From Hathewaya limosa (GTDB lineage Bacteria; Bacillota; Clostridia; Clostridiales; Clostridiaceae), in assembly GCF_030815255.1 (NCBI RefSeq), contig NZ_JAUSWN010000001.1:7045-39044 (forward strand): 32,000 nt of DNA, written 5' to 3'. The notes below the pieces were generated by a model. The model was not told the origin of the DNA and did not search any database. It saw nothing but the letters and a program-made list of their open reading frames with translations. Shown here piece by piece: positions 4,993-31,475 of this stretch. Position numbers and translations under genes: made by a program. Within the stretch, counting starts at the first letter, position 1, and each line of letters opens with the position of its first letter.

Positions 4993-5038
4993 AAATATAT
5001 ATATAAGGCGGTTTTAAAAATTTAATTAATTATATAGG

Positions 5039-5239: not shown

Positions 5240-5417
5240 CTCAAATTAAAAAGAATACTATACTTTATATAGTATGAAAAAAATCATAGAAGTGATAATT
5301 TATTAAGGTAAGATAGAGATATGAAGTATAAAAAAATTTAAAAAAATTTCATGAACAAAAATATATTCTATAAAATTTCATATACATAAAATAAATTTTC
5401 ATGATAGAAAAATAATT

Positions 5418-5446
5418 TTGAAAATTAGTAGCTTTTTAATTATTAT
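5418..5446 (+). promoter_or_regulatory. Candidate sigma-A promoter of the XRE-cupin regulator / glycyl-radical operon
   Basis: TTGAAA (5418-5423), a 17-nt spacer and TATTAT (5441-5446), with further TATAAT copies just downstream. The site is about 85 nt upstream of the ATG at 5529. Confidence 0.35.
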
Positions 5447-5528
5447 AATAGTATAATAATATTAAGTAAACAATAACTTTTATTATTGTGAAGATATAAA
5501 AGAATTTAAATGTGGAAGGGATTTTATT

Positions 5529-6092: not shown

Positions 6093-6123
6093 AAACTAGA
6101 GTTTTTTAAAAGGGGATGATATT

Positions 6124-7026: not shown

Positions 7027-7030
7027 TTTT

Positions 7031-9397: not shown

Positions 9398-9519
9398 TTT
9401 TTCTTTGATGAAAATTAAACAAGAATTTATAAAAAAAATAGAAAATAGTCTCTCTAATTTGATAAATATTATGCAAAGTTTTACTAAATAGTAGTATAAT
9501 ATTTGTATAGTTAAATATA

Positions 9520-9550
9520 GGCATTAAGAAAAAATGATTTTCTTAATGCC
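9520..9550 (+). other. 13-bp hairpin in the hypD-proC spacer, with no U-tract
   Basis: GGCATTAAGAAAA (9520-9532) pairs with TTTTCTTAATGCC (9538-9550) and ends 30 nt before the proC ATG. A TATAAT lies at 9495-9500. The hairpin could be a weak terminator, a processing or stabiliser element, or leader structure. Confidence 0.4.
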
Positions 9551-9579
9551 TAGTAATAAATAAGTGGGGAGGCTAAGTA

Positions 9580-10386: not shown

Positions 10387-10441
10387 TAGTTACAATGTTG
10401 CAAAAATTGCTTTTAATAACACAGATTAAACATATTTCTAA

Positions 10442-10477
10442 AAAACAGCTTAAAGTCATGTACTAAGCTGTTTTTTT
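10442..10477 (+). terminator. Rho-independent terminator after proC
   Basis: AAAACAGCTTA pairs with TAAGCTGTTTT, followed by a T-run. Confidence 0.8.
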
Positions 10478-10512
10478 GTGTGTTAATTTATAAAAATGTG
10501 AGGAGGAATTAT

Positions 10513-11484: not shown

Positions 11485-11536
11485 GTAATATTATTAAAGT
11501 TGAAGCAAAATAATATGAATTTTTAGACGAATAAGA

Positions 11537-11566
11537 AAAAGACCATAATTATAATTATGGTCTTTT
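11537..11566 (+). terminator. Rho-independent terminator after the EamA gene
   Basis: AAAAGACCATAATT pairs with AATTATGGTCTTTT in a near-perfect palindromic hairpin ending in TTTT. Confidence 0.75.
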
Positions 11567-11764
11567 AGCACGTTTGTGCCATATGGGGGATACATATATA
11601 ATTAGGGGGATCATATATGTATTAATAGTATTAACAGAATTTTAGATTTTAAACACATATTTTAAAATTTTATATATTTTTATTTTAAAATTGTTTTATT
11701 AATTAATAGTATAATAATAAGAGTAATATATTTCCAGACATTATAGTTATTTAAAAAAGGTAAC

Positions 11765-11793
11765 TTGACATAATAGAATGTATATACTATCAT
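11765..11793 (+). promoter_or_regulatory. Candidate sigma-A promoter of the metG T-box leader
   Basis: TTGACA (11765-11770), a 17-nt spacer and TATCAT (11788-11793), about 30 nt upstream of the start of Stem I. Confidence 0.5.
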
Positions 11794-11820
11794 TAATATA
11801 AATATTAATAAATGTTTTTA

Positions 11821-12099
11821 AAAGACTATGAAGAGAAGAGTAGTAAATTAAAGTATTTAAAGAGAGCCAGGTTAGGTGAAAGCTGGTGATATGGAGATTT
11901 ATGAATATGGCCTCTGAGTTGATTATTCGAGCTTTTATAAAGTAAGGGTAATACGGTAATGACCGTTATATTATAGGGTGATAAGTTTCTAAATTTGTTG
12001 AAGCCGTCACTTAGTGAGATATTTATGAAGACATAAATATGAAATAGAGTGGTAACGCGTATATAACGCCTCTAAGCAATTGTGCTTAGAGGTTTTTTT
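11821..12099 (+). promoter_or_regulatory. T-box riboswitch leader (Met specifier) controlling metG
   Basis: The Stem I elements are ATGAAGAG/AAGAGTA (GA/K-turn and S-turn), the AGAGAG bulge and the distal loop GGTGAAAG. The specifier loop GAATATGGC has AUG at 11906-11908 followed by a purine. The T-box sequence AAATAGAGTGGTAACGCG lies at 12042-12059. The terminator CCTCTAAGCA/TGCTTAGAGG plus seven T lies at 12069-12099. Confidence 0.88.
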
Positions 12100-12166
12100 A
12101 TTTTATAAAAACATTAATAAAAAAGAAATTGATTATTATAATAAACATTGAAGGAGGAACGGTATT

Positions 12167-18167: not shown

Positions 18168-18241
18168 ATATTTACAATTAAAATTAGTGTATAATTAATA
18201 AGTAGAATAGGAAAATAATCAAAAAGAAAGAAGGAATGCAT

Positions 18242-19918
18242 ATGGAAGATAAATTTACGAATAAAAGAAAAAATCATATTATAGTTATTTTATTTATTAT
18301 AATAATTAGTTCTGTATGTATAAATGAAAAAGTTCATCTAATAAAAACTCCAAAACTAAAAGGAGCAACTATAGAAAAGAATAAACCTACATTTTCTTTA
18401 AGGAGTTATTTAAAGGGATCATATCAAAAAGATCTCGAGGAATGGTATAGTGGTAACTTTTCTTTAAGAAATAATTTTATTAAATTGTATTCAAAATTAA
18501 AATCTAATATATTTGATAAATCTGCATTACCAGGTGCAATAAAAGGTAAAGAAGGAATGCTGTTTGAACCAGATTATGTAGATGAATATTTAGGACTTAG
18601 AAAAACTACTTCTGATAAAGATTTAAAAAAATTAGTATATAATATAGATGAAATAAGAAGAATGTGTAATAAATCTGGAAAAGAATTTTATCTGATAATA
18701 ACTCCAAGTAAGGCTCATTTTTATCATGAATATTTACCAGAAAGGGCAGTGAGAGAAGGAACGTTACATAAAGACAGACAAGGAAAAAGTAGAGATTATT
18801 ATAGGTTTTTAAACATTTTAAACGATACAGATATTAAATACTTTGATAGTGTTAAGTATATAGAAGATAACAAGAAATTATTTAATACGCCTTTATATTC
18901 AAAATATGGAACTCATTGGACATTTGTGACAGCAGCGAAGGTAGTAAATGGATTTGTAGATTATGTTAATAAAACCTCAAAGTTAGATTTAACTAATATA
19001 TATGTAGATGATATATTAGAAAGTAATAAATCTTTTAATGAAGAAGATGTAGATATACAATCTGTTTTAAATTTTAAAAGTAAGGAAAAGTATAAATTTC
19101 AATCTCCTATAGTCAAATCGGAGAAAAAAGATACACGAAATATGCCTAATATATTTATTGAAGGTGGAAGTTTCAATTGGCAACTTATTAAATATTTAAG
19201 AATGAATAGAGTTGTTAATGAAATGGACTTCATGTTCTATAAAAAGTTTGTAAGAAGATATAAATTTCAACAAATGGTTAATGAGCAGGTTGCAATAGAT
19301 AAAAATAATAAGGAGTTAAGTAATGCATATTTAGATAGATATTTACCTAATAAGGATATGATTATTCTTGAAGTTAATCAAACGGCTCTTAATAATATGG
19401 GAGAAGGATTTATTGAAATTTTTAAAGATTATCTAAATACAAAGGGATTTCCTAAGTATGAATATATTAAAAATTTTGAGTCCGCTAGTACACCAGAAGA
19501 TTTAACTTACAAAAGTACAGGATTTTTCACAGTAAATAAAGATGAAAATGGATATTATAATTGGATGTCTGATGAAGGGATTGTACAATTAAAAAACAGG
19601 CAAATAGAAGATAGTGGAATTAGCATTAAGACCTATATTCCTTTAGACTATTTAAAGAAATCTTCTAATAATCCTCAATTAGATATTTATGTTAATGGAA
19701 AGTTGGTTTGTAAAGTTCCTATAAATAAGTCAGGAATTTATAATATAAATATTCCTAAGAATAAATTTAATATATCAAAAGATCATTTGTATAAGGTTGA
19801 TTTAAAAATGAATTCTGCTTTTAGATTTTGTGATGTTGATAACTCGCAGAATGAAGTTAATAAAAATAATAATCGTTGGTTTTCTATGAAAGTATATTAT
19901 ATAGGGGAAGGAAGATAG
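18242..19918 (+). CDS. Extracytoplasmic AlgX/AlgJ-like (DHHW-type, SGNH-like) putative O-acetyltransferase partner of the adjacent MBOAT protein, with a C-terminal beta-rich (CBM-like) extension
   Basis: There is an N-terminal signal-anchor (IIVILFIIIISSV). A THW motif (YGTHWT, codons 18908-18919) lies where AlgJ/AlgX/DHHW proteins carry D-x-H-W. A GGSF motif (19163-19174) lies where they carry G-D-S-F. The gene is translationally coupled to the downstream MBOAT gene. I prefer the ATG at 18242 over 18236 because the RBS AAGGAA overlaps the first ATG. Confidence 0.6.
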   Translation: MEDKFTNKRKNHIIVILFIIIISSVCINEKVHLIKTPKLKGATIEKNKPTFSLRSYLKGSYQKDLEEWYSGNFSLRNNFIKLYSKLKSNIFDKSALPGAIKGKEGMLFEPDYVDEYLGLRKTTSDKDLKKLVYNIDEIRRMCNKSGKEFYLIITPSKAHFYHEYLPERAVREGTLHKDRQGKSRDYYRFLNILNDTDIKYFDSVKYIEDNKKLFNTPLYSKYGTHWTFVTAAKVVNGFVDYVNKTSKLDLTNIYVDDILESNKSFNEEDVDIQSVLNFKSKEKYKFQSPIVKSEKKDTRNMPNIFIEGGSFNWQLIKYLRMNRVVNEMDFMFYKKFVRRYKFQQMVNEQVAIDKNNKELSNAYLDRYLPNKDMIILEVNQTALNNMGEGFIEIFKDYLNTKGFPKYEYIKNFESASTPEDLTYKSTGFFTVNKDENGYYNWMSDEGIVQLKNRQIEDSGISIKTYIPLDYLKKSSNNPQLDIYVNGKLVCKVPINKSGIYNINIPKNKFNISKDHLYKVDLKMNSAFRFCDVDNSQNEVNKNNNRWFSMKVYYIGEGR

Positions 19919-19927
19919 GGAGGAAGT

Positions 19928-21367
19928 ATGGTATTTAGTTCACCGATATTTTTATTCATATTTTTACCATTGATGTTAATCATTTATTTTTTTTCGGATA
20001 AAAAGTTTAAAAATTTCGTTTTACTCCTTGGTTCTTTAATATTTTATTCTTGGGGTGGTGCGAAATATCTTATTTTAATGCTTTTTTCTATTATAGTAAA
20101 TTATTTAATTGGTATTTTAATAGGAAAATATAAGAAAAATAATAATATAAAAAAATGTATACTTATATTAGGTGTATTATTTAATCTAAGCATATTAGGG
20201 TATTTTAAATATTTTAATTTTTTTATTCATAATGTTGAACATATAGGGAAAATATTCAATAATAATTTCAGTATTATGAATAACAAAATAGTATTACCTA
20301 TAGGAATTTCATTTTTTACATTCCAGATGATGTCTTATATAATTGATGTTTATAGGGAAGAGGTAACACCACAAAAAAGTATTATAAACCTTGGATTATA
20401 TATTATGCTATTCCCACAACTTATTGCAGGACCAATAGTTAGATATATAGATATAGAAGAACAAATTAATACTAGAAAAGTAAATCTATATAAATTTACA
20501 CATGGAATGGAAAGATTTATAATAGGCCTTTCAAAAAAAGTATTAATAGCAAATTCCAATGGTTTTATAGTAGATTATGTTTTTAAAGAGCCTTCTTTTT
20601 ATAGTAATACAGTATTGGTTTGGTTAGGGATAGTTTGTTATGCATTACAAATATACTATGATTTTTCAGGATATTCGGATATGGCAATAGGTCTCGGAAA
20701 AATGTTTGGTTTTGATTTTTTAGAGAATTTTAATTATCCATATATCTCTAAGAGTATAAAAGAATTTTGGAGAAGGTGGCATATTTCATTATCTACTTGG
20801 TTTAGAGATTATTTATATATTCCCTTAGGTGGAAGTAAAGTGGGGAAATTTAAAACTTATAGAAATTTAGTAATTGTATTTTTTGCTACAGGATTATGGC
20901 ACGGTGCTAGTTGGAATTTTATTATTTGGGGATTATTTCATGGAATGTTCCTTATTTTAGAGAGAGGAAAGTTTGGAGAATTATTGCAGAAAGTACCTAC
21001 TATACTACAAAGAATTTACACTATGCTTGTTGTTTTAGTCGGATGGGTATTTTTTAGGGCGAATAATTTTAAATTAGCATTAAAGTATATTAAGGGAATG
21101 TTTAAGGTTGATTTTACGAAAGTTAATCAAATATATGGGGTTATAGATAAAGAGTATATGTTTTTTATAATAATAGGAATAATATTTTCTACACCTTTAA
21201 TTAAAAAATTAAATTCCTTATTTAATAGTAAGATTAAGACTGAGAATAATTTAATTATAGTTATAACAGAAGGTATGTGGATAGCTATATTAATGAGTAT
21301 GTTTATTATTTCTATATTATACATAACAGGGTCAAACTTTAATCCATTTATATATTTTAGATTTTAG
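19928..21367 (+). CDS. MBOAT-family membrane-bound O-acyltransferase (AlgI/PatA/DltB-like)
   Basis: The 479-aa protein is polytopic. MBOAT signature blocks are present: FWRRWHISLSTWFRDYLYIPLGGS and GLWHGASWNFIIWGLFHG (conserved His). The RBS GGGAGGAAG overlaps the stop of the upstream gene. Confidence 0.92.
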   Translation: MVFSSPIFLFIFLPLMLIIYFFSDKKFKNFVLLLGSLIFYSWGGAKYLILMLFSIIVNYLIGILIGKYKKNNNIKKCILILGVLFNLSILGYFKYFNFFIHNVEHIGKIFNNNFSIMNNKIVLPIGISFFTFQMMSYIIDVYREEVTPQKSIINLGLYIMLFPQLIAGPIVRYIDIEEQINTRKVNLYKFTHGMERFIIGLSKKVLIANSNGFIVDYVFKEPSFYSNTVLVWLGIVCYALQIYYDFSGYSDMAIGLGKMFGFDFLENFNYPYISKSIKEFWRRWHISLSTWFRDYLYIPLGGSKVGKFKTYRNLVIVFFATGLWHGASWNFIIWGLFHGMFLILERGKFGELLQKVPTILQRIYTMLVVLVGWVFFRANNFKLALKYIKGMFKVDFTKVNQIYGVIDKEYMFFIIIGIIFSTPLIKKLNSLFNSKIKTENNLIIVITEGMWIAILMSMFIISILYITGSNFNPFIYFRF

Positions 21368-22927: not shown

Positions 22928-24355
22928 GTGGCTTCTAAGAAAAGTTATTCAAGATACTTTATAATATTACAGGAAGATGAAAAGGGGTACGCATTAGATA
23001 GAGATAAGAGTTCTTCTGGTTATGTGAAACTTGAAAAGAAAAATAATAAATGTAAAGTTTCTTTTTATGCCCAAAATATAAATCCAGGTATGGAACCATA
23101 TTATATGGTCTTAGTTTGCAAAGAAAAAAGCGTTAAAAAGCTATTAGTGCTTGGTAAACTAAGTATAAGTGAGCAAGGAAAAATTGACATGAGCTGTGAA
23201 TATGATGTAGATAACATTGCTGGTACTAAAATGTCAATGCAACATATAATAGGAGCAACTGTAAGTAAAGTTATTGAAAAGGACATAGTTTCATTAATGA
23301 GTGGTTTTATGGGTTCAGATATGCCTAAGGATTGGAAAAAATATGAACTTGTAAAAGTTACTAGGGAAGATGAAGTTGCAGAAAAAGAAGAAACTAAAAA
23401 TGTGGAACCAGATAAAACTAGAGAAGATCCTAAAATTGAACAAGAAGAAAAAGTGGAAGAACCAAAAAAACAGGAGTCTCCTAGAGGAACATTTGACGAG
23501 TATGAAAAGAAGATAGAGGAAAATGTAAAGGAAGAAGAAATACAAAGTTTACCTGAAGAAGAAGTAAGAAGTGAATCAGAATCAAATGATAGTACTAATC
23601 AGGATAAAAGTAAGGAAAATGAGATTTTATCTGAAGAGTCAACAGAGAAAGAAAATACAGAAATAGAAGAAGTATTAAATAGAGAAGAAACAGAAGAAAT
23701 ATTAGATAAAGAAGAAAGTCTAGAAAGATCACAAGAAGTTATAGGTGAAAAGGCAGAATCAGAAGACAATATAATTGATGAGGATGATGAATTTTGTAAT
23801 AGATATCTAGAAGAATTTATGGAAGAACCACAAATGGATTTTAGATATGATGAGAATTCAGAATATCATTCCTTTGAAGATATGTTACGCAAAAAGAAAA
23901 AATGTTGTTGTAAAAAATGTACTCATGAAGATATGCCAATAGGTAGACTAGGAGCTTATTTTAAAGGATTGATTTCTTGTTTTGACGAGATACAGGATAT
24001 GGGTGAAGAAATACCAATGTGTAAATGGTATAAGATACCTGTGGAAAAATTAGAAGATATGTATGATTGTTCGGATTTTGATAGATATACAATTATATAT
24101 TATCCTATGATTTGCTATTACTCCTATATAAGTAAACATAAACATTATTGTATAGGTTATAAATGTAACAAAGAAGGAAAACTACTATATATCCTTTATG
24201 CTATACCAGGTGGAAAGGATAGAATGTGTCAACCTTATGGTGGAAGAACAGGATTTGTAACTTGGATACCATATAAATGTCAAGAAAGTGGATATTGGTT
24301 AATGTTCTATGATTTTAGAAAATCAAGTGTAGTAGTGCCTATTAGAAAAAAATAA
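22928..24355 (+). CDS. Uncharacterised tripartite protein: ~135-aa N-terminal domain, ~170-aa Glu/Lys-rich acidic linker, ~180-aa Cys/Tyr-rich C-terminal domain
   Basis: The start is GTG, 5 nt after GGAGGGA. There is no signal peptide or TM segment. The linker (approx. 23340-23830) is low-complexity E/K/S. The C-terminal part begins KKKKCCCKKCTHEDMP and contains many Cys and aromatic residues (YYPMICYYSYISKHKHYCIGYKCNKEG...GYWLMFYDF). I recognise no family. Confidence 0.7.
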   Translation: MASKKSYSRYFIILQEDEKGYALDRDKSSSGYVKLEKKNNKCKVSFYAQNINPGMEPYYMVLVCKEKSVKKLLVLGKLSISEQGKIDMSCEYDVDNIAGTKMSMQHIIGATVSKVIEKDIVSLMSGFMGSDMPKDWKKYELVKVTREDEVAEKEETKNVEPDKTREDPKIEQEEKVEEPKKQESPRGTFDEYEKKIEENVKEEEIQSLPEEEVRSESESNDSTNQDKSKENEILSEESTEKENTEIEEVLNREETEEILDKEESLERSQEVIGEKAESEDNIIDEDDEFCNRYLEEFMEEPQMDFRYDENSEYHSFEDMLRKKKKCCCKKCTHEDMPIGRLGAYFKGLISCFDEIQDMGEEIPMCKWYKIPVEKLEDMYDCSDFDRYTIIYYPMICYYSYISKHKHYCIGYKCNKEGKLLYILYAIPGGKDRMCQPYGGRTGFVTWIPYKCQESGYWLMFYDFRKSSVVVPIRKK

Positions 24356-24490: not shown

Positions 24491-25081
24491 ATGAGGGATA
24501 AAGTGGAGAATAAAAAAGTTGTTGTAAATATTATTGTGCTGATAGTTTTAATGATGGTTTTAACAATTGGAGAATTAAAGTTAAATAGTAAACTAAAATT
24601 AACCGCTTTTTCTGAAAATAATATAAATGAGCTAAAGCAATATAAAAATCCTAATGGAAAATTAAGCTATTTCTTACCTAAAAATTGGGTTACGAATGAA
24701 GAAAAATTTAATGGTGGAGAAATAACATATCATAATGAATTTAAGTCTCCCGATAAAAAAATCTATGGATATGTACAACTGTGGAATAAGAAATCAGATT
24801 TAAAAGATTTTCTTTATAGTAGTAAAGAAATTTCATCAAAACAAAATGTTATTAATAATTATAAATTAGAAAAGTTTATTTTTAATAATAAAAAGGCCTA
24901 TAAGCTTATATACGATATGCAAATATCAGGGACTAATACTTTTAGGGTAGAAGAGTATTTTATAGACATTGGGGATCAATTTGTTAGGATATCTTTTTCA
25001 GTAAATAAGCAAAATTATAGGGAGCAAATGGGAAGAGTATTTAAAACAATAGTTGATACTATTAAAGTTAATAAAAAATAA
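24491..25081 (+). CDS. Membrane-anchored extracytoplasmic protein of unknown function
   Basis: The ORF is 196 aa with RBS GGAGGGA and one N-terminal TM helix (VVVNIIVLIVLMMVLTIG). The soluble domain that follows begins with a YFLPKNW motif reminiscent of PsbP/DcrB-like folds. That is resemblance only. Confidence 0.65.
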   Translation: MRDKVENKKVVVNIIVLIVLMMVLTIGELKLNSKLKLTAFSENNINELKQYKNPNGKLSYFLPKNWVTNEEKFNGGEITYHNEFKSPDKKIYGYVQLWNKKSDLKDFLYSSKEISSKQNVINNYKLEKFIFNNKKAYKLIYDMQISGTNTFRVEEYFIDIGDQFVRISFSVNKQNYREQMGRVFKTIVDTIKVNKK

Positions 25082-25256
25082 TTAATTCTAAACAAGGTTA
25101 TAAGTTTGAACATTTAATTAAAATTAATTAGAAAAACTTATATATTAAAGGATTTTAAGTAAAAGTGTAGAATTTTTAATATTGGAGTAGAATGTAGGGA
25201 AGGAGGATCTAATTAATTCTATATCTTTAATATTAATGTTTAGTATCTTTTAATAT

Positions 25257-25275
25257 TTAATCCCTTTACGCTTAA
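25257..25275 (+). promoter_or_regulatory. Conserved 19-nt box upstream of autolysin paralog 1
   Basis: TTAATCCCTTTACGCTTAA ends 60 nt before the ATG at 25336. It is 18/19 identical to the box at 28721-28739 upstream of paralog 2, although the surrounding intergenic DNA is poorly alignable. Confidence 0.55.
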
Positions 25276-25335
25276 TCGTAATCAATCTTATTACAACAAA
25301 AGAAAATAGATGATGATAAAGAGGGGTTTGATAAA

Positions 25336-28300
25336 ATGAAAATGAAGAATAGAAAGGTACTTTCGTTAATTTACAGTTTTATTTTTATAAGTTTTATTTT
25401 TAGTTCAAATATGGTATATGCTGAAGAAGTTATATCGGATATGAATGCCATTAAAATTAGTTTAAATAACTTACAGGATGAAGAAACATTAAGTATAGAA
25501 AAGGAAGTTAAAGCTTCAGTAATAAGTATTAATCCTGTGGACAATGTAGAGGTTTATTTCAATGACAAAAAAATGGATAATATACCTTTTCAAGTGATAC
25601 ATAAGGATGATGATGAAAAAACTTATGGAGAATTTTCGTATAAGTTAAATCCTAAAGACCTATCAGAAGGTAAACATGAAATAGATTTCATTGTTACAGA
25701 TATTAATGGTAATTCTAAAAAGGAATCAAGAAATATAACTATTGAAGGCATAAAACAAAATGTAGAGGATGAACAAATTACTGAAAAGCGTAGAGATATT
25801 AAGGCCTTTGTTGAAAGTGAAAAGACATCAATTAGGGGAAGGGCAGAAATAACAAAGGGGCAAGCGTTTTCGTATCTAAGACTTAGAAATTCTCAAAAAT
25901 CCGATGAATATATAAGCAATTTTGTTACTTGGGTTTGGGAAGAAGGAGAAGCTGAAGGTATTCGTTCAGACATAGCGTTTGCACAAATGATGAAAGAAAC
26001 AGGATTTCTAAAGTTTGGCGGAGATGTTAGTGAAGAACAAAATAACTTTGCCGGTATTGGAGCAGTAGGCGGAGGTGTAGCAGGGGCAAGCTTTCCAACT
26101 ATTCAAATAGGCATAAGGGCTGTAATTCAACATCTTAAGGCATATGCTTGTAAAGATCCACTAAATAAGGAATTAGTAGATCCTAGATTTAATTTAGTTA
26201 CAAGAGGATGTGCTCCATATGTAGAAGATTTATCTAATAAATGGGCTGCAGGAGATTCTAACTATGGACAGGATATAGTTAAAATGGTGGAGTATGCTAA
26301 GACCTTAGAAAGTAGAAATCCAAAAGCGATTCTAAAAAGCTTTAAGGTTTATGATAATGGTGCAGAGTGTAATATTGATAACAAGTTTGTTTATAATAAA
26401 AAGTATACTTTAGTTGCAGAAGCTGAAAGTATGAATACAATACTATATCAATTTTGGATTAAAGATAAAAGAACAAATCAATGGACTATGTTAAGAGATT
26501 ATAGTGAAGATAATATATTTACTTGGACTTCACCATCTGATGGAAAAGATTATTTAATAGGGGTGCATGTAAAAGATAAATGTAGTAAAGAAAGATTAGA
26601 TGACTTCAAATATACTCCAGTTCAATTTATTTTAGAAAAAGCCAAATTACAAAGTTTTGGTGTATATGATGGAAATACTGAAATAAAGGATTTTGTATTT
26701 AAAAAGGGAAAAACATATACATTAAGGTCAAATGCTATAGCTAATTCAAAAGTATTATATCAATTTTGGATTAAAGATAAGCGTACAGATAAGTGGACTA
26801 TGTTAAGAGATTATGAAGAAAATAATACATGTACTTGGACAGCACCGACCGACGGAAAAGACTATTTAATAGGAGTACATGTAAAAGATGAAAGTAGTAA
26901 ACAAAGGTTAGATGATTTTAAATATAACATTATGAAGCTAGAGTCAATGAAATCTTACGTTCAGAGTTTCGGTGTATATGATGGTAATAACGAAATAAAA
27001 AATTCAGTATTCAAAAAAGGAAAAACATATACATTAAAAGCAGTAGCTATAGCAGAATCAAAGCCATTATATCAATTTTGGATAAAGGACAAAAGAAATG
27101 GCCAATGGACTATGTTAAGAGACTTTGCAGAAAGTAATACATTTACATGGATAGCACCAATGAATGGTCAAGATTATTTAATAGGTGTACATGTAAAAGA
27201 TAATCATAGTATTGAAAGATTAGATGATTTTAAATACAATCCTATTCACTTGGAAGTAGAAAAATCTCATATTCAAAGTTTTAGTGTGTATGATGGAAAT
27301 ACTGAAATAAAGAATTATGTATTTAAAAAAGGAAAATCATATACATTAAAATCAACTGCTATAGCAGAGTCAAAAGCATTATATCAATTCTGGATTAAAG
27401 ACAAAAGCAATAATCAATGGACTATGTTAAGAGATTTCGAGGAAGGCAATACAATTACATGGACAGCACCAACAGAGGGGCAAGATTATTTACTTGGAGT
27501 ACATGTAAAAGATAAATATAGTGTAGAAAGATTAGACGATTTTAAGTATAGTTCTATGAAGGTAGAGTCTGGAACAGCCCAAGTTCAAAGCTTTAAAATG
27601 TATTATGGATCAAAAGAAATAACATCACATGTTTTTCAAAGGGGTAAAAAATATACGTTAAAAGCAACGGCTAATGGAGCTTCAAAGCCATTATATCAAT
27701 TCTGGATTAAAGACAAAAGTAATAATCAATGGACTATGTTAAGAGATTTTGCAGAAAGTAATACAGTCACTTGGACAGCACCTACAAAAAGTTGTCAAGA
27801 TTATTTATTAGGGGTTCACATAAAAGATAAATGTAGTCAACAGAGATTGGATAGTTTTAAGTATCAGCCAATAACACTTTATGGAACTATCATAAATAAT
27901 AATAGTAAGAATAAGAAGAAGATAGTCTTAGATGCTGGACATGGAAATAGAAATCTTACTTATGGCGGATATGATTCAGGCGCAGTTGGCGTTGGCGGTA
28001 TAAGGGAAAGTGATCTTACTCAAAGTTTGACATTAAAGTTAGGACAATATTTGCAAAGACAAAACTTTGACATAATTTATACAAGAGATTACTTAAAAGG
28101 TTATACACAAGTAAGGGAAGATTTAATACAAAGAGTTGATGTTGCTAATAGTAACAAAGCGGATTTATTTGTAAGTCTTCATTTCGATAGTAGCAATAAT
28201 CCAAGTGCTAATGGTATTAGTACGCACTATAGTAGCTATAAACCTAATTTAGATAATTCAGGGTTACAGACTATGAATGATATAGTCTATGATAGAACAC

Positions 28301-28551
28301 CTTGTACAGAGGCTATAAAAAGTAGGGAATTATCTAATTTAATAGGCAAAAGACTAGCTGAACTAGGTTTTGTTAATAGAGGATCTAATGATCATAATTT
28401 ATATGTAACAAAAAATACTAACATGCCATCTTTACTTATAGAGAATGGGTTTGTTACTAATCCTACTGAAGCAAATAAAATTAAAGATCCAAATATGCAG
28501 AATAAAATGGCTGAAAAAATTGGACAAGCAATTAATGATTTTTTTAAGTAA
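25336..28551 (+). CDS. Secreted bifunctional peptidoglycan hydrolase: signal peptide, Ig-like N-domain, GH73-type N-acetylglucosaminidase, 5 x 104-aa repeats, N-acetylmuramoyl-L-alanine amidase (Amidase_3)
   Basis: The signal peptide ends with a VYA/EE cleavage site. The glucosaminidase block is AFAQMMKETGFLKFGG...NNFAGIGA...IRAVIQHLKAY (approx. 25830-26300). Five repeats follow. The amidase block is KKIVLDAGHG...DLFVSLHFDS...NMPSLLIENGFVTNPTE (approx. 27913-28548). Confidence 0.9.
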   Translation: MKMKNRKVLSLIYSFIFISFIFSSNMVYAEEVISDMNAIKISLNNLQDEETLSIEKEVKASVISINPVDNVEVYFNDKKMDNIPFQVIHKDDDEKTYGEFSYKLNPKDLSEGKHEIDFIVTDINGNSKKESRNITIEGIKQNVEDEQITEKRRDIKAFVESEKTSIRGRAEITKGQAFSYLRLRNSQKSDEYISNFVTWVWEEGEAEGIRSDIAFAQMMKETGFLKFGGDVSEEQNNFAGIGAVGGGVAGASFPTIQIGIRAVIQHLKAYACKDPLNKELVDPRFNLVTRGCAPYVEDLSNKWAAGDSNYGQDIVKMVEYAKTLESRNPKAILKSFKVYDNGAECNIDNKFVYNKKYTLVAEAESMNTILYQFWIKDKRTNQWTMLRDYSEDNIFTWTSPSDGKDYLIGVHVKDKCSKERLDDFKYTPVQFILEKAKLQSFGVYDGNTEIKDFVFKKGKTYTLRSNAIANSKVLYQFWIKDKRTDKWTMLRDYEENNTCTWTAPTDGKDYLIGVHVKDESSKQRLDDFKYNIMKLESMKSYVQSFGVYDGNNEIKNSVFKKGKTYTLKAVAIAESKPLYQFWIKDKRNGQWTMLRDFAESNTFTWIAPMNGQDYLIGVHVKDNHSIERLDDFKYNPIHLEVEKSHIQSFSVYDGNTEIKNYVFKKGKSYTLKSTAIAESKALYQFWIKDKSNNQWTMLRDFEEGNTITWTAPTEGQDYLLGVHVKDKYSVERLDDFKYSSMKVESGTAQVQSFKMYYGSKEITSHVFQRGKKYTLKATANGASKPLYQFWIKDKSNNQWTMLRDFAESNTVTWTAPTKSCQDYLLGVHIKDKCSQQRLDSFKYQPITLYGTIINNNSKNKKKIVLDAGHGNRNLTYGGYDSGAVGVGGIRESDLTQSLTLKLGQYLQRQNFDIIYTRDYLKGYTQVREDLIQRVDVANSNKADLFVSLHFDSSNNPSANGISTHYSSYKPNLDNSGLQTMNDIVYDRTPCTEAIKSRELSNLIGKRLAELGFVNRGSNDHNLYVTKNTNMPSLLIENGFVTNPTEANKIKDPNMQNKMAEKIGQAINDFFK
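26329..27888 (+). repeat. Five in-frame tandem coding repeats with a period of exactly 312 nt (104 aa)
   Basis: The anchor string CAATT(T/C)TGG (from YQFW) occurs at 26449, 26761, 27073, 27385 and 27697, so all spacings are 312. The repeat consensus is xLYQFWIKDK(R/S)xxQWTMLRD(Y/F)xExNxxTWTAPxxGxDYL(I/L)GVHVKDxxSxxRLDDFKY. Confidence 0.95.
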
Positions 28552-28568
28552 CATAAGATTGATACAGA

Positions 28569-28577
28569 GGCGTAAAG
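28569..28577 (+). promoter_or_regulatory. Inverted partial copy of the box core in the 3' UTR of paralog 1
   Basis: GGCGTAAAG lies between the stop (28551) and the terminator (28596-28634). It is the reverse complement of CTTTACGCC and matches 8 of 9 positions of the upstream box core CTTTACGCT. Confidence 0.4.
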
Positions 28578-28595
28578 TAAGTTAAAAATCATTTT

Positions 28596-28634
28596 AAAAT
28601 AGGAAGAAGATAAAACTTCTTCCTATTTTTTATT
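28596..28634 (+). terminator. Rho-independent terminator after autolysin paralog 1
   Basis: AAAATAGGAAGAAG pairs with CTTCTTCCTATTTT in a perfect 14-bp stem, followed by a T-rich tail. Confidence 0.85.
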
Positions 28635-28720
28635 TTGTTTTTAAAAAAAGTCAAAAAATATAAATATTTTGGAGGAATTTATAGAATAATATAGAAGTTT
28701 AAATATTGAAACAGTTCATT

Positions 28721-28739
28721 TTAATCCTTTTACGCTTAA
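28721..28739 (+). promoter_or_regulatory. Conserved 19-nt box upstream of autolysin paralog 2
   Basis: TTAATCCTTTTACGCTTAA ends 54 nt before the ATG at 28794. See the box at 25257-25275. Confidence 0.55.
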
Positions 28740-28793
28740 AATAACAAATCATGTAAAGTTACTTTCTATTATGACATAAAGGGGATAGATAAA

Positions 28794-31391
28794 ATGAAGA
28801 ATGTCAACAAACGAATAAGGACTTTTATTTATAGTTTAATGTTTATTGGTTTTGTTTTTGGAATTCATGTAACTTATGCAGATGAAATATTGCAAGATAA
28901 AAATTCAACGAATCAAGTCGTAGATAAACAAGAATACAAGCAACATATCAGTTATTTAGATACGAAACAGGAAGATTGTACACTTATCATGGGACAGGCA
29001 GAAATGACAAAAGGACAGGCATTTACATATCTTAAACATAGAAATCACAATAAAGATACTAGATATATATATAATTTTGTTAATTATGTTTGGGAGGAAG
29101 GACAAAGGGAAGGGGTTCGTCCAGATATAGCTTTTGCCTTAATGATGAAAGAAACAGGGTTTTTAAATTTTGGTGGAGATGTAAGTGAAACACAAAATAA
29201 TTTTGGAGGTATTGGAGCTACTGGTGGTGGTGCTAAGGGAAATAGCTTTCCTAGTATTCAAATCGGTATAAGAGCTGTTATTCAACATCTTAAAGCCTAC
29301 GGAAGTAAAGAGAAATTAGTGAATGATGTTGTAGATCCAAGATTTGAAAAAGTTACAAGAGGAGTTGCACCTTATGTTGAATTATTAGCTAATAAGTGGG
29401 CTGTTGGTAATCCTAATTATGGCAGACAAATTGTAGCTATGGTTGAAAAAGGAAAAGAATTAAGTGATGAAAGTCCTAAAAGCATAGTAGAAGATTTTAA
29501 AATTTTAGATGGTAATTTAGATGTTACTAAAGAAAAACTTTTACGAGGAAAAACTTATACTTTAATGGCAGAGTCAAAGAGTGAAGAAAATACATTATAT
29601 CAATTTTGGCTTAAAGATAGAAGGACTAATAAATGGATTCTGTTAAGAGATTATGATACTAAAAATACAATAACATGGGTTGCACCTATGGATAATTGTG
29701 ATTATTTAATTGGAGTACATGTAAAAGGTCAATATAGTATGAAAAATTTAGATGACTTTTATTATGAATATATACAAGTTATCAAAGGTATAGCCAAGGT
29801 AAAAGGTTTATCAATATATGACGGGACTACAGTAATTTCTAATAGAAAATTAAAAAAGGGAAAAACTTATACAGTAAAGGCAGAAGTAGAAAAAAACTGT
29901 ATTCCAATGTATCAATTTTGGCTTAAGGATAAGAGAACAAATAAATGGATGATGCTAAAAGATTATGGAGAAAATAATACCATAGTATGGACATCACCTT
30001 TAGAAGGAAAAGATTATTTATTAGGAGTACATGTAAAAGATAAGTATAGTGATAAGAGATTGGATAGTTATAAATATGAAGGTATTCAATTAGTATCACA
30101 AAGTCCACAAAATACAATTTTAAATAGTTTTGAAGTGTATGATAGAAATAGCATTATAACAAATAATTTATTTAATAAAGGAAAGGCTTATACAATAAAA
30201 GTAAAGGCATTTTCTGCTACAAAGCCATTGTACCAATTTTGGCTTAAGGATAAAAGAACAAATAAGTGGACAATACTAAGGGATTATAGTGAAAGTGATA
30301 TGTTTAGTTGGATATCACCTAGTGACGGAGAAAATTATTTGTTAGGAGTGCATGTAAAAGATAAATATAGTGATAAAAGACTAGACCTATATCAATATAA
30401 ATCTATAAAAGTTATAGGAGAATCTATAATAGCCAATGTAAAGAATTTTAAAATATACCAAAATAGTAGTGAAATAACAGATGGTAGACTTAAACAAGGT
30501 GAACAATATAATTTAAAGGCATGTGCTATAGCAACTTCAAAACCATTGTATCAATTTTGGATTAAGGATAAAAGAAATGGTAAATGGACAATGTTAAAAG
30601 ATTATAGTGAAAAGGATACAATTACATGGATGTCACCAAATGAAGGAAAAGACTATTTGTTAGGAGTACATGTAAAAGATAAATACAGTATAAAAAGGTT
30701 AGATACTTTTAAGTATGTACCAATTACTATTTTAGGTGGAATTAATACTAAAAAGGCAAAAATAGTTTTAGATGCTGGTCATGGAAATAAAAATATTACT
30801 TACGGTGTTATTGATTCTGGATGCATAGGAGTAGGTGGCGTAAGAGAATGCGATTTAACTCAAATGTTAACAATGAAGGTAGGACAATATTTAAAAGAAC
30901 GTAATTTCGATGTTATTTATACACGAGATTATCTAAAAGGTTATAAAGAGGTTAAAAATGATTTACAACAAAGATGTGATATTGCTAATTATAATAAAGC
31001 AGATTTATTTGTAAGTTTTCATTTTGATTCAATTGGTAACCCTAAAGTTGAAGGAGTTAGTACACATTATAGTAGTTATAGGCCTAACTTAGATAATTCA
31101 GGATTACAAACTATAAATGATATAATATATGATAAAACACCTTGTATTCAGGCTATAAAAAGTAAAGAATTATCTGATATAATATGTAAAAGATTATCAG
31201 AATTGGGGTTTAAAAATAGAGGATCTAAAGATCATAATCTATATTTAACTAGAAATAGTAATATGATCTCTTTACTTATAGAATGTGGATTTATTACAAA
31301 TCCATCAGAGGTTAAAAAGGTGGAAAATCCAATAATACAAACTAAAATGGCCGAAAAAATTGGAGAGGCTATAAGTGATTTTTTAAAGTAA
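28794..31391 (+). CDS. Secreted bifunctional peptidoglycan hydrolase, paralog 2: signal peptide, GH73-type glucosaminidase, 4 x ~105-aa repeats, Amidase_3
   Basis: The signal peptide ends with a TYA/DE cleavage site. The glucosaminidase block is AFALMMKETGFLNFGG...NNFGGIGA...IRAVIQHLKAY. Four repeats follow. The amidase block is AKIVLDAGHG...DLFVSFHFDS...LLIECGFITNPSE. It lacks the ~120-aa Ig-like N-domain of paralog 1. Confidence 0.9.
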   Translation: MKNVNKRIRTFIYSLMFIGFVFGIHVTYADEILQDKNSTNQVVDKQEYKQHISYLDTKQEDCTLIMGQAEMTKGQAFTYLKHRNHNKDTRYIYNFVNYVWEEGQREGVRPDIAFALMMKETGFLNFGGDVSETQNNFGGIGATGGGAKGNSFPSIQIGIRAVIQHLKAYGSKEKLVNDVVDPRFEKVTRGVAPYVELLANKWAVGNPNYGRQIVAMVEKGKELSDESPKSIVEDFKILDGNLDVTKEKLLRGKTYTLMAESKSEENTLYQFWLKDRRTNKWILLRDYDTKNTITWVAPMDNCDYLIGVHVKGQYSMKNLDDFYYEYIQVIKGIAKVKGLSIYDGTTVISNRKLKKGKTYTVKAEVEKNCIPMYQFWLKDKRTNKWMMLKDYGENNTIVWTSPLEGKDYLLGVHVKDKYSDKRLDSYKYEGIQLVSQSPQNTILNSFEVYDRNSIITNNLFNKGKAYTIKVKAFSATKPLYQFWLKDKRTNKWTILRDYSESDMFSWISPSDGENYLLGVHVKDKYSDKRLDLYQYKSIKVIGESIIANVKNFKIYQNSSEITDGRLKQGEQYNLKACAIATSKPLYQFWIKDKRNGKWTMLKDYSEKDTITWMSPNEGKDYLLGVHVKDKYSIKRLDTFKYVPITILGGINTKKAKIVLDAGHGNKNITYGVIDSGCIGVGGVRECDLTQMLTMKVGQYLKERNFDVIYTRDYLKGYKEVKNDLQQRCDIANYNKADLFVSFHFDSIGNPKVEGVSTHYSSYRPNLDNSGLQTINDIIYDKTPCIQAIKSKELSDIICKRLSELGFKNRGSKDHNLYLTRNSNMISLLIECGFITNPSEVKKVENPIIQTKMAEKIGEAISDFLK
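29481..30743 (+). repeat. Four in-frame tandem coding repeats of the same module as in paralog 1
   Basis: The CAATTTT anchors lie at 29601, 29913, 30234 and 30552, giving spacings of 312, 321 and 318 nt. The consensus is YQFW(L/I)KDKRTNKWxxL(R/K)DYxExxxxxWxSPxxGxxYLLGVHVKDKYSxKRLDxYKY. Confidence 0.95.
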
Positions 31392-31405
31392 AATAAGGAT
31401 TTGAT

Positions 31406-31417
31406 TTAAGCGTAAAG
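31406..31417 (+). promoter_or_regulatory. Inverted copy of the box core in the 3' UTR of paralog 2
   Basis: TTAAGCGTAAAG is the exact reverse complement of CTTTACGCTTAA (25264-25275). It is complementary in 11 of 12 positions, plus one G-U pair, to TTTTACGCTTAA (28728-28739). It lies between the stop (31391) and the terminator (31447-31475). Confidence 0.5.
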
Positions 31418-31446
31418 TAGTATTATAATTAAATAAAGTCAAAATT

Positions 31447-31475
31447 GGGGGAGCCTTGGCTTCCCTTATTTGTTT
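31447..31475 (+). terminator. Rho-independent terminator after autolysin paralog 2
   Basis: GGGGAG-ccttgg-CTTCCC is a GC-rich hairpin followed by TTATTTGTTT. Confidence 0.7.

Follow-up and report, generated by a model that had tools for sequence, protein, structure and literature searches.

Two long, adjacent genes on the chromosome of Hathewaya limosa raise the question of what a bacterium does with a tandem pair of proteins that each appear to join two wall-cutting enzymes, how unusual such proteins are, and how the pair arose. We analyzed a window of 32,000 nucleotides containing both genes, and all positions given here refer to it. Gene 1 (25336..28551, forward strand) encodes 1071 amino acids and gene 2 (28794..31391, forward strand) encodes 865, exactly as claimed in the original prediction. 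The two products, recognized here as bifunctional peptidoglycan hydrolases from their open reading frames and Pfam matches, are already in NCBI under a generic amidase name (WP_343749860.1 and WP_307354657.1, respectively). In both proteins, the modules stand in the predicted order of glucosaminidase, repeats, and amidase, and Pfam recognizes both catalytic modules. We consider it highly likely that the two products are autolysins, probably vegetative ones: modular, bifunctional peptidoglycan hydrolases that H. limosa exports by the Sec route, that belong to a family of fixed domain order, and whose genes arose by tandem duplication.

Both proteins carry a strongly diverged GH73-type glucosaminidase module on the N-terminal side. 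The Glucosaminidase family PF01832 matches gene 1 at aa 200-321 with 43.6 bits and gene 2 at aa 98-219 with 45.2 bits, above the gathering cut-off of 30.2 bits. The full module spans aa 160-331 in gene 1 (25813..26328, forward strand) and aa 58-230 in gene 2 (28965..29483, forward strand), as supported by Pfam and conservation in both and additionally by AlphaFold2 and Foldseek in gene 1. The glutamate of the MMKETGF motif (motif starting at aa 218 and 117, respectively), on which the predicted activity depends, is present in both proteins as the putative catalytic residue (E221 and E120). This glutamate, the QNNF motif (aa 235 and 134), and a W-A...YG motif are all invariant across 22 homologs, and the YG motif aligns with the GYATDPNY motif of FlgJ when a profile of the 22 sequences is compared with the PDB. 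The AlphaFold2 model of the gene 1 module (pLDDT 89.8) has a predicted lysozyme-like, alpha-rich GH73 fold. Its best 21 Foldseek matches in the PDB are all GH73 enzymes, among them AtlE, Ecd09610, LytB, TM0633, FlgJ, Acp, Auto, AtlA, Atl, and SagB, with probabilities of 0.63-1.0, TM-scores of at most 0.63, a best E-value of 7e-3, and 12-17% identity. PDB sequence searches with the module, either as a single sequence or as the 22-sequence profile, found no significant match, returning a chance match to MAP2K7 and a weak match to the tail of FlgJ (E=0.64). Because the module is so strongly diverged, by both its lack of a significant PDB sequence match and its Foldseek E-value, its bond specificity is taken from the family: it would cut glycan strands at the GlcNAc-beta-1,4-MurNAc bond.

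The C-terminal module is a canonical Amidase_3 domain. PF01520 matches aa 863-1067 of gene 1 with 153.3 bits and aa 657-861 of gene 2 with 135.9 bits, against a gathering cut-off of 27 bits. The domain occupies aa 854-1071 (27895..28548, forward strand) and aa 652-865 (30747..31388, forward strand), respectively, with the motifs LDAGHG (aa 865 and 659), HFDS (aa 949 and 743), and LLIE(N/C)GF (aa 1033 and 827). The H/E/H zinc ligands are intact in both paralogs (H869, E891, and H949 in gene 1; H663, E685, and H743 in gene 2), as is the catalytic glutamate (E1036 and E830). All four residues align with those of CwlV (1jwq), and 13 family members share them. As a zinc-dependent enzyme of this family, the domain would cleave the MurNAc-L-Ala bond and thus strip the stem peptide from the glycan.

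The amidase domain is interrupted by a family-specific insert of 29 amino acids, a feature that the first reading of the sequence had missed. In gene 1 it occupies aa 967-995 (28234..28320, forward strand; SYKPNLDNSGLQTMNDIVYDRTPCTEAIK), and gene 2 carries it likewise. Its consensus, SSY[KR]P.LDNSG...YD[RK]TPC, is found in 12 of 13 aligned family members, the C. chauvoei protein being diverged in this segment. The insert is absent from CwlV, 5emi, 4rn7, LytH, and the amidase-only paralogs of C. botulinum, while AmiA (8c2o) has approximately 40 unaligned residues at the same sequence position. The insert could keep the amidase inactive until activation.

Between the two enzymes lie five repeats in gene 1 (aa 332-853; 26329..27894, forward strand) and four in gene 2 (aa 231-651; 29484..30746, forward strand), the copy numbers originally counted. 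They follow a strict 104-amino-acid period anchored on YQFW[IL]KD...GVHVKD, with 43-71% identity among units, and in gene 1 the array is also visible in the DNA (26444-27864; period 312, 4.5 copies, 77% matches). Both arrays are basic (pI 9.0 and 9.35, respectively). We find that the repeats, which the original prediction had not assigned to a family, are diverged Y_Y_Y (PF07495) domains. PF07495 itself matches neither the whole H. limosa proteins nor their single repeat units; however, the alignable repeats of homologs score 98-193 bits on this family, 11 of 25 aligned repeat units match it individually (best E=8e-10), and the NCBIfam model PRK14081 ("triple tyrosine motif") is matched at E=1e-33. 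The modeled repeat (pLDDT 94.5) is a seven-stranded beta-sandwich whose structural matches are generic FN3/Ig domains only, with TM-scores of at most 0.75; searching the PDB with a repeat profile gave no significant match. Pfam detects no SH3 or GW family and no other recognizable wall-binding domain in either protein. Matches to Kinesin, AAA_22, Kelch_6, and DUF3472 all overlap the repeats and were dismissed as spurious, DUF3472 being the only one with a significant individual stretch.

Both proteins also begin with the predicted leader peptides. Gene 1 has a Sec-type signal peptide at aa 1-29 (25336..25422, forward strand), in which MKMKNRK is followed by a hydrophobic core and by VYA directly before EE; that of gene 2, also aa 1-29 (28794..28880, forward strand), ends in TYA before DE. 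From these signal-peptide-like N-termini, as read from the sequence, we infer that both proteins are Sec-exported. The extra Ig-like N-domain proposed for gene 1 is likewise borne out: an acidic segment (aa 30-159, pI 4.6; 25423..25812, forward strand) has matches to Big_13, DUF4625, and Big_7, all below threshold, the best being Big_13 (E=1e-4, 23 bits against a cut-off of 27). It aligns over approximately 130 residues, with 23-31% identity, to the N-domains of the orthologs in H. histolytica and genome L007. Furthermore, Big_7 precedes GH73 in two more distant homologs, in one of which (P0110) it exceeds the cut-off at 30 bits.

The signals around the genes suggest that the two look like separate transcription units. 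Each has its own ribosome-binding site (AGAGGGG at 25320-25326 and AAAGGGG at 28778-28784) and its own terminator-like hairpin, as originally proposed. The hairpin after gene 1 has a 14-bp stem followed by a T-run (28596..28629, forward strand); the one after gene 2 is GC-rich, is also followed by a T-run, and lies inside the leader of the downstream gene lgt (31447..31466, forward strand). A putative extended -10 box, TGTAGAAT, precedes gene 1 (25166..25173, forward strand), implying a leader of approximately 155 nt, and is also found upstream of the orthologs in L002, L003, and L005. The corresponding candidate for gene 2 is TATAGAAT (28680..28687, forward strand). We found no Rfam match upstream of either gene, at the gathering threshold or at E<=1, to a riboswitch or other leader such as the c-di-AMP/ydaO type. 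The upstream regions of six orthologs have a mean column identity of 46%, an alignment too poor for covariation.

A short inverted motif flanks each gene, another feature missed by the first reading. On the 5' side it appears as CTTTACGCTTAA, 71 nt before the start codon of gene 1 (25264..25275, forward strand), and as TTTACGCTTAAA, 65 nt before that of gene 2 (28729..28740, forward strand), the latter being a perfect 12-nt reverse complement of 31405-31416. The 8-mer CTTTACGC has three exact matches in the window, where 0.18 would be expected, and CTTTACGCTTAA also occurs upstream of the ortholog in L005. On the 3' side, GCGTAAAG (31410-31417) sits in the spacer of the Sigma70-type promoter of lgt (TTGATT-N17-TATAAT; 31401..31429, forward strand), which is conserved in L002, L003, L005, and L007. 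Pairing between the 5' and 3' untranslated regions, or terminal inverted repeats of a mobile cassette, were considered for CTTTACGC and GCGTAAAG. Both ideas are weakened because the 3' copy belongs to a conserved lgt promoter spacer, and because H. histolytica, H. proteolytica, and C. botulinum have the motif in degenerate form or not at all.

The genes occupy a conserved chromosomal position. The neighborhood, metG-tatD-yabE-rnmV-ksgA...lgt, is chromosomal housekeeping, and the order conserved among Hathewaya is ksgA, two genes of unknown function, the autolysin gene, and lgt. This context, together with the signal peptides on both proteins, rules out an origin as prophage endolysins.

The pair is a tandem duplication specific to the H. 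limosa lineage. Other Hathewaya-type genomes have one gene at the same site, and in trees of the GH73 domain, the amidase, and the repeats the two H. limosa genes group with each other. Two tandem copies are found only in H. limosa and in the near-identical genome 14S0207. An ancient duplication would follow if gene 2 were orthologous to the short genes that L005 and H. proteolytica each carry in single copy. The repeat tree ruled this out, because the repeats of genes 1 and 2 form one clade, apart from the position-wise orthologous repeats of L005 and H. proteolytica. The duplicated unit included the 3' flank, because a decayed copy of the lgt promoter (TTGATA-N17-TTAAAA; 28559..28587, forward strand), with GCGTAAAG at 28570-28577, stands after gene 1. 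After the duplication, copy 2 shed its acidic Ig-like N-domain and evolved away more quickly, and copy 1 expanded its internal repeats. The original suggestion of sub-functionalization rather than a recent duplication holds only in part, with a division of functions as a mere possibility: the copies are down to 54-57% identity and copy 2 has no N-domain, but the duplication is lineage-specific. The pair also offers a natural comparison between a protein with an N-domain and five repeats and one with no N-domain and four.

Far from being confined to this locus, the architecture is that of a large clostridial family in which C. botulinum and C. sporogenes are prominent. The same domain order, with 1 to 10 repeats, is found in C. 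botulinum, C. sporogenes, C. chauvoei, and others. Among the best 150 repeat-bearing representatives, GH73 precedes the amidase in all 21 two-enzyme proteins, and Pfam confirms the order GH73, repeats, Amidase_3 in seven homologs. The closest counterparts are uncharacterized clostridial proteins named "N-acetylmuramoyl-L-alanine amidase" by NCBI (for example P0018 and P0030 of C. botulinum, with ABS37491.1, and P0002 of H. histolytica), which share the domain order, the repeat type, and the 29-amino-acid insert. These counterparts show 38-47% identity over 59-85% of the protein, and those of Hathewaya species occupy the same chromosomal locus. A literature search found no experimental study or characterized member of the clostridial GH73 / Y_Y_Y / Amidase_3 family. 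The claim of an unusual architecture stands insofar as no characterized protein with it was found in the literature, although its novelty was overstated, the architecture being common in Clostridium species.

In C. botulinum, the family gene lies within a cluster of three hydrolase genes adjoining polysaccharide-synthesis genes, and the same repeat type is carried there by a GH73-only and an Amidase_3-only enzyme. Partner domains were surveyed by an exhaustive search of representatives followed by Pfam batches. Of the best 150 repeat-bearing representatives, 45 have GH73 and/or amidase domains of the H. limosa-type bifunctional family; in a Pfam analysis of 50 further representatives, 11 have other GH73 domains and 5 have SpoIID. 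The repeat is also paired with Cohesin, transglutaminase-like, and GH18 domains, and it occurs alongside SH3_3.

By analogy with Atl and LytC/LytD, the two proteins probably serve to turn over the vegetative wall or to separate daughter cells. They might instead act in sporulation or germination, as mother-cell lysins like CwlC and CwlH of B. subtilis or as cortex-modifying enzymes like CwlD. H. limosa is a spore-former, the same repeat type is fused to SpoIID in other organisms, and the amidase domains match the CwlD model TIGR02883 at E=4e-27 and 3e-25; however, their scores of 95.5 and 89.5 bits are far below the equivalog cut-off of 221.55. The architecture is also unlike that of CwlD, CwlC, or SleB, housekeeping genes lie on both flanks, and the upstream boxes, judged by their letters only, are sigma-A-like (extended -10 TGTAGAAT) and not sigma-E/-K/-G-like. 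We regard a sporulation role as quite unlikely. Secreted bacteriolysins directed at the walls of competitors, and not at that of the producer, would also be two-enzyme lytic proteins with signal peptides, and a duplicated locus with fast-diverging copies and rapid repeat turnover resembles the pattern of conflict-driven evolution. Yet the surroundings of the pair in the window contain neither an immunity gene nor a dedicated export gene, the position in the core chromosome is syntenic and conserved across Hathewaya, and the C. botulinum family gene stands beside cell-envelope polysaccharide genes, which points to self-wall targeting. It is therefore very unlikely that the proteins serve to attack other cells. 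Nor do we expect one of the catalytic modules to be a non-enzymatic binding or scaffolding domain that leaves the proteins effectively monofunctional. This has been suggested for the amidase of TftA, the closest named GH73 relative, in which two active-site positions are substituted (K81 and Q152; PMC10710843), and the insert in the H. limosa amidase is positioned like the regulatory insert of AmiA/B/C. All canonical catalytic and metal-binding residues are nevertheless present in both paralogs and family-wide, which makes the loss of one activity highly improbable.

For vegetative autolysins of this kind, the four to five basic repeats would hold the two enzymes apart and, most likely, place the protein in the wall or keep it there. 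The repeats could be plain spacers, because their partners also include Cohesin, transglutaminase-like, and GH18 domains and because they occur beside SH3_3, itself a known wall binder. As inert stalks, they would set the distance between active sites or span an S-layer; the generic FN3/Ig beta-sandwich fold, the wide range in copy number, and the free expansion and homogenization of the arrays are consistent with this. The basic charge of the arrays, the enrichment of the repeat on several unrelated wall hydrolase classes, and the fact that the two H. limosa proteins have no other recognizable wall-binding domain argue against it, and we consider a pure spacer role possible without preferring it. 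A bolder proposal is that the Y_Y_Y repeat is a new wall-targeting module of Clostridium sensu stricto and Hathewaya and that the 29-amino-acid insert is an autoinhibitory element like that of AmiA/B/C; taken together, we find this doubtful. The ligand of such a repeat may be a secondary wall polysaccharide, as it is for CWB2 of C. difficile. The repeat would then be common to GH73-only, Amidase_3-only, SpoIID-type, and bifunctional wall hydrolases, and a targeting repeat combined with a regulatory insert would yield switchable two-step wall-cutting enzymes.

Gram-positive bacteria use modular autolysins to control how cells separate, renew their walls, lyse, and release toxins and enzymes; the binding modules of these proteins also serve as diagnostic and enzybiotic tools. 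Among the bacteria that carry the family described here are major pathogens and spoilage organisms such as Group I C. botulinum, C. sporogenes, C. chauvoei, and collagen-degrading Hathewaya. If the Y_Y_Y repeats do target the wall, they would form a new class beside the LysM, SH3b, CWB1/2, SLH, and GW anchors and could provide a specific probe for these clostridia. The finding is an incremental and testable extension that does not overturn current understanding.

The original prediction described these proteins as a reversed version of the staphylococcal autolysins. Like Atl and AtlE, each is one secreted polypeptide in which a MurNAc-L-Ala amidase and a GH73 domain are joined by internal repeats, and the GH73 fold is common to both (4pi9, 6fxo), with only 12-15% identity. 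The order is indeed opposite; however, the amidase of Atl/AtlE is an Amidase_2 domain (PF01510), whose fold differs from that of Amidase_3, and these proteins have SH3b/GW-like repeats and a propeptide and are cleaved into two enzymes. Pfam finds no Amidase_2 match in either H. limosa protein. Because Atl uses Amidase_2 and SH3b-like repeats, where H. limosa has Amidase_3 and Y_Y_Y repeats, only the GH73 domains are homologous, and "reversed Atl" expresses an analogy rather than kinship.

Among named proteins, the GH73 module is closest to cyanobacterial TftA of Nostoc punctiforme. Its model NF050040 is the best NCBIfam match of both paralogs (E=2e-54 and 5e-55; 185 and 187 bits, far below the equivalog cut-off of 500), and the best-matching stretch corresponds to TftA positions 277-442, the C-terminal GH73 region. 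TftA combines Amidase_3 with the same GH73 subtype, but in reversed order: its amidase, which has a degenerate active site, is N-terminal, and a beta-rich linker separates the two domains (PMC10710843). This linker is a single segment of 138 amino acids in place of the Y_Y_Y repeats, and TftA has a cyanobacterial morphogenetic role. LytC (CwlB) and LytD of B. subtilis and Cwp6 of C. difficile (5j72) are vegetative wall hydrolases that likewise join Amidase_3 or GH73 to a repeat array, and the Cwp6 amidase aligns with that of H. limosa over the whole domain. In contrast, they have one enzyme per protein, unrelated wall-binding repeats (CWB2, LytC-type), and no 29-amino-acid insert.

A parallel to that insert is found in the cell-separation amidases AmiA, AmiB, and AmiC of E. 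coli (8c2o, 8c0j, 3ne8, 4bin), in which the extra segment is an autoinhibitory helix that is released by LytM-domain activators. The E. coli segments are approximately 40-60 amino acids long, whereas the H. limosa insert has 29 with a conserved YD(R/K)TPC, and there is no sequence similarity between them. Nevertheless, both interrupt the Amidase_3 fold at the same site, immediately downstream of the strand after the second zinc-binding histidine.

The Hathewaya limosa hydrolase pair arose by duplication, within one lineage, of a member of a clostridial autolysin family that is widespread and carries automatic annotation. Both genes lie on the forward strand, gene 1 at window positions 25336-28551 (protein P1, 1071 aa) and gene 2 at 28794-31391 (P2, 865 aa). 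P1 matches WP_343749860.1 at 100% identity, and P2 is already in the database as WP_307354657.1; both are labelled "N-acetylmuramoyl-L-alanine amidase [Hathewaya limosa]". Shine-Dalgarno sequences stand 9 nt 5' of each ATG on the same strand (AGAGGGG, 25320-25326; AAAGGGG, 28778-28784). Both N-termini have a predicted Sec-type leader with a basic start and a hydrophobic core (sites VYA↓EE in P1 and TYA↓DE in P2), and a hairpin with a T-run follows each gene (28596-28629 and 31447-31466). The original prediction of two such ORFs, each with its own ribosome-binding site, leader and terminator, is therefore borne out.

The domain identities, modelled folds and residue conservation of P1 and P2 come from the analysis itself. 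Pfam scores all exceed the cut-offs (Glucosaminidase PF01832, 30.2 bits; Amidase_3 PF01520, 27 bits), as anticipated for both proteins: the glucosaminidase (GH73) domain reaches 43.6 bits in P1 (aa 200-321) and 45.2 bits in P2 (aa 98-219), and the amidase 153.3 bits in P1 (aa 863-1067) and 135.9 bits in P2 (aa 657-861). The amidases can be aligned with CwlV (1jwq), Cwp6 (5j72), AmiA/B/C, CwlD, and LytH. No zinc ligand is missing, nor is the catalytic glutamate (H869, E891, H949, and E1036 in P1; H663, E685, H743, and E830 in P2), at positions kept in 13 family members. The GH73 glutamate of MMKETGF (E221 in P1, E120 in P2) is invariant among 22 homologs, as are the QNNF and W-A...YG motifs.

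In sequence terms, the GH73 domain is strongly diverged. PDB sequence searches with the single sequence and with a 22-member profile returned no significant relative; the sole trace was FlgJ (E=0.64), over the C-terminal GWA..NYG / GYATDPNY motif. We therefore compared folds. An AlphaFold2 model built from the 22-sequence alignment (pLDDT 89.8, pTM 0.88) was searched against the PDB with Foldseek, and the best 21 matches are all GH73 enzymes, including AtlE, the Ecd09610 glucosaminidase, LytB, TM0633, FlgJ, Acp, Auto, AtlA, Atl, and SagB; a type VI secretion effector follows at rank 22. The matches have probabilities of 0.63-1.0, TM-scores <=0.63 and identities of 12-17%, with a best E-value of only 7e-3.

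The Amidase_3 domains contain a 29-aa insert (P1 aa 967-995, SYKPNLDNSGLQTMNDIVYDRTPCTEAIK) that is absent from CwlV, 5emi, CD2761 (4rn7), and LytH. It is kept in 12/13 aligned family members, the C. chauvoei protein having a diverged segment there. C. botulinum amidase-only paralogs with the same type of repeat lack it (Pfam span of 176 aa vs 203-205 aa). AmiA (8c2o, 8c0j) has 40-60 additional residues at this place, and the extra segment of AmiA/B/C is an autoinhibitory helix. By this analogy, a regulatory role for the insert can only be hypothesized.

The repeats between the two enzymes can be identified, through their homologs, as diverged Y_Y_Y domains. Units anchored on YQFW[IL]KD...GVHVKD number five in P1 (aa 332-853) and four in P2 (aa 231-651), the predicted counts, with a period of strictly 104 aa and pairwise identities of 43-71%. 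At the DNA level, Tandem Repeats Finder places the P1 array at 26444-27864 (period 312, 4.5 copies, 77% matches). H. limosa units score below threshold on Pfam Y_Y_Y (PF07495). The identification is made because homologs' repeats that align with them score 98-193 bits on PF07495, 11/25 aligned units match individually (best E=8e-10), and NCBIfam PRK14081, "triple tyrosine motif-containing protein", is matched at E=1e-33. The predicted model of a single unit (pLDDT 94.5) is a seven-strand beta-sandwich with generic structural neighbours: FN3, the C-terminal domain of a GH158 enzyme (TM 0.75), a Wzt domain, and phage structural Ig domains. Both arrays are basic (pI 9.0 in P1 and 9.35 in P2). Pfam matches to Kinesin, AAA_22, AAA_7, Kelch_6, and Microtub_bd on the repeat regions of C. 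botulinum proteins (P0101 and P0107, and 2626-9798 of the CP013857 locus) were treated as artefacts; almost all are without a significant individual stretch. The same names occur in the precomputed Pfam lists of these proteins and could mislead automated annotation.

P1 also carries the extra N-domain that had been predicted as Ig-like. This region (aa 30-159) is acidic (pI 4.6), has Ig-like matches in Pfam that are all sub-threshold, and aligns over ~130 residues with the N-domains of the H. histolytica ortholog and of another Hathewaya-type ortholog, L007 (23-31% identity). A Big_7 match lies N-terminal of GH73 in two more distant homologs, above threshold in one (P0110).

Domain trees, a tree of individual repeats and a decayed promoter copy argue that the tandem pair is a duplication specific to the H. 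limosa lineage. A single hydrolase gene occupies the same site in three relatives from metagenomes as well as in H. histolytica and H. proteolytica (ksgA, an unknown of 449-494 aa, an unknown of 192-200 aa, hydrolase, lgt, yhfM, parA); a second copy is confined to H. limosa and the near-identical genome 14S0207. Neighbour-joining trees of the GH73 and amidase domains place the two genes as sisters within the Hathewaya clade. All their repeats likewise form one clade, R1 grouping with R1 and R5 of gene 1 with R4 of gene 2; units of L005, another Hathewaya-type ortholog, and of H. proteolytica pair position-wise elsewhere. A decayed copy of the lgt promoter (TTGATA-N17-TTAAAA, 28559-28587) follows gene 1, so the duplicated unit included the 3' flank. 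The original prediction favoured sub-functionalisation over a recent duplication; the divergence is real (54-57% identity overall, 67% for GH73 and 70% for the amidase), but the duplication is confined to this lineage. Copy 2 has lost the N-domain and evolves faster, since its amidase is only 63% identical to that of L005, compared with 74% for gene 1. The GH73 domains have pI 5.6 and 8.6, and sub-functionalisation is possible. Repeats R2-R4 of gene 1 (26641-27576) are 71% identical mutually and only 45-57% identical to those of gene 2, and therefore point to internal expansion; R2-R5 of H. histolytica (10001-13483 of locus L002) are nearly identical, which points to ongoing homogenisation. 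This pattern indicates that the arrays evolve in concert.

A short motif flanks both genes. Its 5' copy (CTTTACGC(TTAA)) stands 65-71 nt 5' of the two start codons on the forward strand (CTTTACGCTTAA, 25264-25275; TTTACGCTTAAA, 28729-28740), and the reverse complement GCGTAAAG lies 19 nt past each stop codon, before the terminator (28570-28577 and 31410-31417). The 8-mer has 3 exact matches in the window, with 0.18 expected. Complementarity is perfect over 12 nt for gene 2 and is retained in L005 with one change, G-U-compatible in RNA; more distant orthologs have degenerate versions only. An Rfam search of both leaders matched no family. The 3' copy sits within the spacer of the near-consensus sigma70 promoter of lgt (TTGATT-N17-TATAAT, 31401-31429), which follows the gene 2 stop codon and precedes the terminator hairpin. 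The motif may serve as an operator or in pairing between the 5' and 3' UTRs, or its overlap with this spacer may be coincidental. Because the promoter precedes the hairpin, the latter, 24 nt upstream of the lgt start, lies within the lgt leader. This arrangement is kept in all Hathewaya-type loci (L002, L003, L005, L007) and may point to a hairpin with two uses or to attenuation.

The surrounding genes belong to the core chromosome. Gene order in the window is T-box, metG, a DUF445 gene, tatD, yabE, SGNH/AlgX-like, MBOAT, rnmV, ksgA, two unknowns, both hydrolases, and lgt; a prophage origin of the pair was rejected on the strength of these neighbours. The genes between ksgA and the autolysins encode a 475-aa protein, rich in Glu and Lys in its middle and in Cys at its C-terminus (22928-24355; no match in Pfam or NCBIfam) and a 196-aa membrane-anchored PsbP_2-like protein (24491-25081). 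Both are kept here in every Hathewaya-type locus examined and may be functionally linked to the hydrolase. The SGNH/AlgX-like (560 aa) and MBOAT/DltB-like O-acyltransferase (479 aa) genes (18236-21367, between yabE and rnmV) occur only in H. limosa; the corresponding interval of H. histolytica and L005 lacks them, as does the H. proteolytica locus. They may act together in O-acylation of a wall polymer or of peptidoglycan and could thereby influence susceptibility to autolysin. The T-box leader (Rfam RF00230, 98.9 bits; 11819-12076) upstream of metG (12167-14128) is ordinary. Further upstream, genes for a 300-aa radical-SAM activase, a 788-aa PFL-like glycyl-radical enzyme, and a 268-aa pyrroline-5-carboxylate reductase stand together (6124-10386), a layout like that of the trans-4-hydroxy-L-proline dehydratase (HypD) pathway, which would suit a collagen-degrading clostridium.

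The architecture is widespread in clostridia. A word-indexed search returned 2,533 homologs at E<=1e-10, and the best 120 have 1 to 10 repeat copies per protein. Pfam recovers the order GH73, repeats, Amidase_3 in 7/9 diverse homologs, with 1-9 repeats scored (C. botulinum, Clostridium sp. KNHs214, C. chauvoei, oral taxon 876, H. histolytica, a metagenome); the remaining two are single-enzyme variants. An exhaustive repeat-profile search of 1.84 billion representatives found 4,109 repeat-bearing clusters at E<=1e-3 and 480 at E<=1e-30. Among the best 150 representatives, called with family-specific HMMs, 21 have both enzymes (GH73 before amidase in all), 8 the family GH73 only, 16 the family amidase only, and 105 neither. 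Pfam on 50 of these 105 detected other GH73 subtypes (11), SpoIID (5), SH3_3 (6), Cohesin (7), transglutaminase-like (3), and GH18 (2) domains. Given these partner domains, the repeat is enriched on wall hydrolases, though not exclusive to them. C. botulinum CP013857 has three consecutive repeat-bearing wall hydrolases (2626-12889 of its locus): repeats with a C-terminal GH73 (1257 aa), repeats with Amidase_3 (1070 aa), and a bifunctional protein (962 aa). Genes for nucleotide-sugar and polysaccharide biosynthesis lie on either side, a layout that resembles the C. difficile cwp/PSII arrangement and hints at a wall polysaccharide as a possible ligand of the repeats.

From their families, by analogy with Atl and LytC/LytD, we infer which bonds both proteins cut, that they are exported and bind the wall, and what physiological role they have. 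After Sec export, the GH73 module would cut GlcNAc-MurNAc bonds and the amidase would strip stem peptides, while the basic array would keep the two active sites apart and probably retain or position the enzyme in the wall. That the repeats act as spacers only is a weaker but serious contender, with the variable copy number and generic fold on one side and the enrichment on wall hydrolases on the other. That one catalytic domain is inactive is very improbable: in both proteins neither domain falls short in score or lacks its expected catalytic or metal-binding residues. The amidase insert and the degenerate amidase of TftA, a relative of the GH73 module, are the points in favour of this reading.

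The most likely role, by the same analogy, is vegetative wall turnover or cell separation. Sporulation-specific lysis is unlikely; SpoIID does accompany the repeat in some proteins, and the pair itself sits among core genes. Use as bacteriolysins against competitors, which secretion would allow, seems less likely still.

The family is a variant of the well-known theme of bifunctional modular autolysins and no new kind of system. A full-text literature search, covering few subscription journals, found no experimental work on it; the supposed novelty of the architecture does not extend to its occurrence. A survey of autolysin architectures in eight pathogens, which left out Clostridium sensu stricto, lists Glucosaminidase->NLPC_P60, Glucosaminidase->CHAP, and others; Glucosaminidase->Y_Y_Y->Amidase_3 is absent from it (PMC8051824). 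Two features deserve attention: the conserved insert in the amidase, and the Y_Y_Y repeat, a candidate module for targeting to the wall. Among named proteins, the GH73 module is closest to Nostoc punctiforme TftA (E=2e-54 and 5e-55), although both proteins score far below the equivalog cut-off of its model. TftA also pairs such a GH73 with Amidase_3, but has an amidase-first order, one beta-rich linker and a degenerate amidase site (PMC10710843). The description of P1 and P2 as "reversed Atl-like" is apt in part: staphylococcal Atl/AtlE share the logic of amidase, repeats, and GH73 in one secreted chain, and the domain order is opposite. P1 and P2 are not members of that family, however, since their amidase is Amidase_3 rather than Amidase_2 and the repeats are unrelated; the GH73 half is the sole homologous part.
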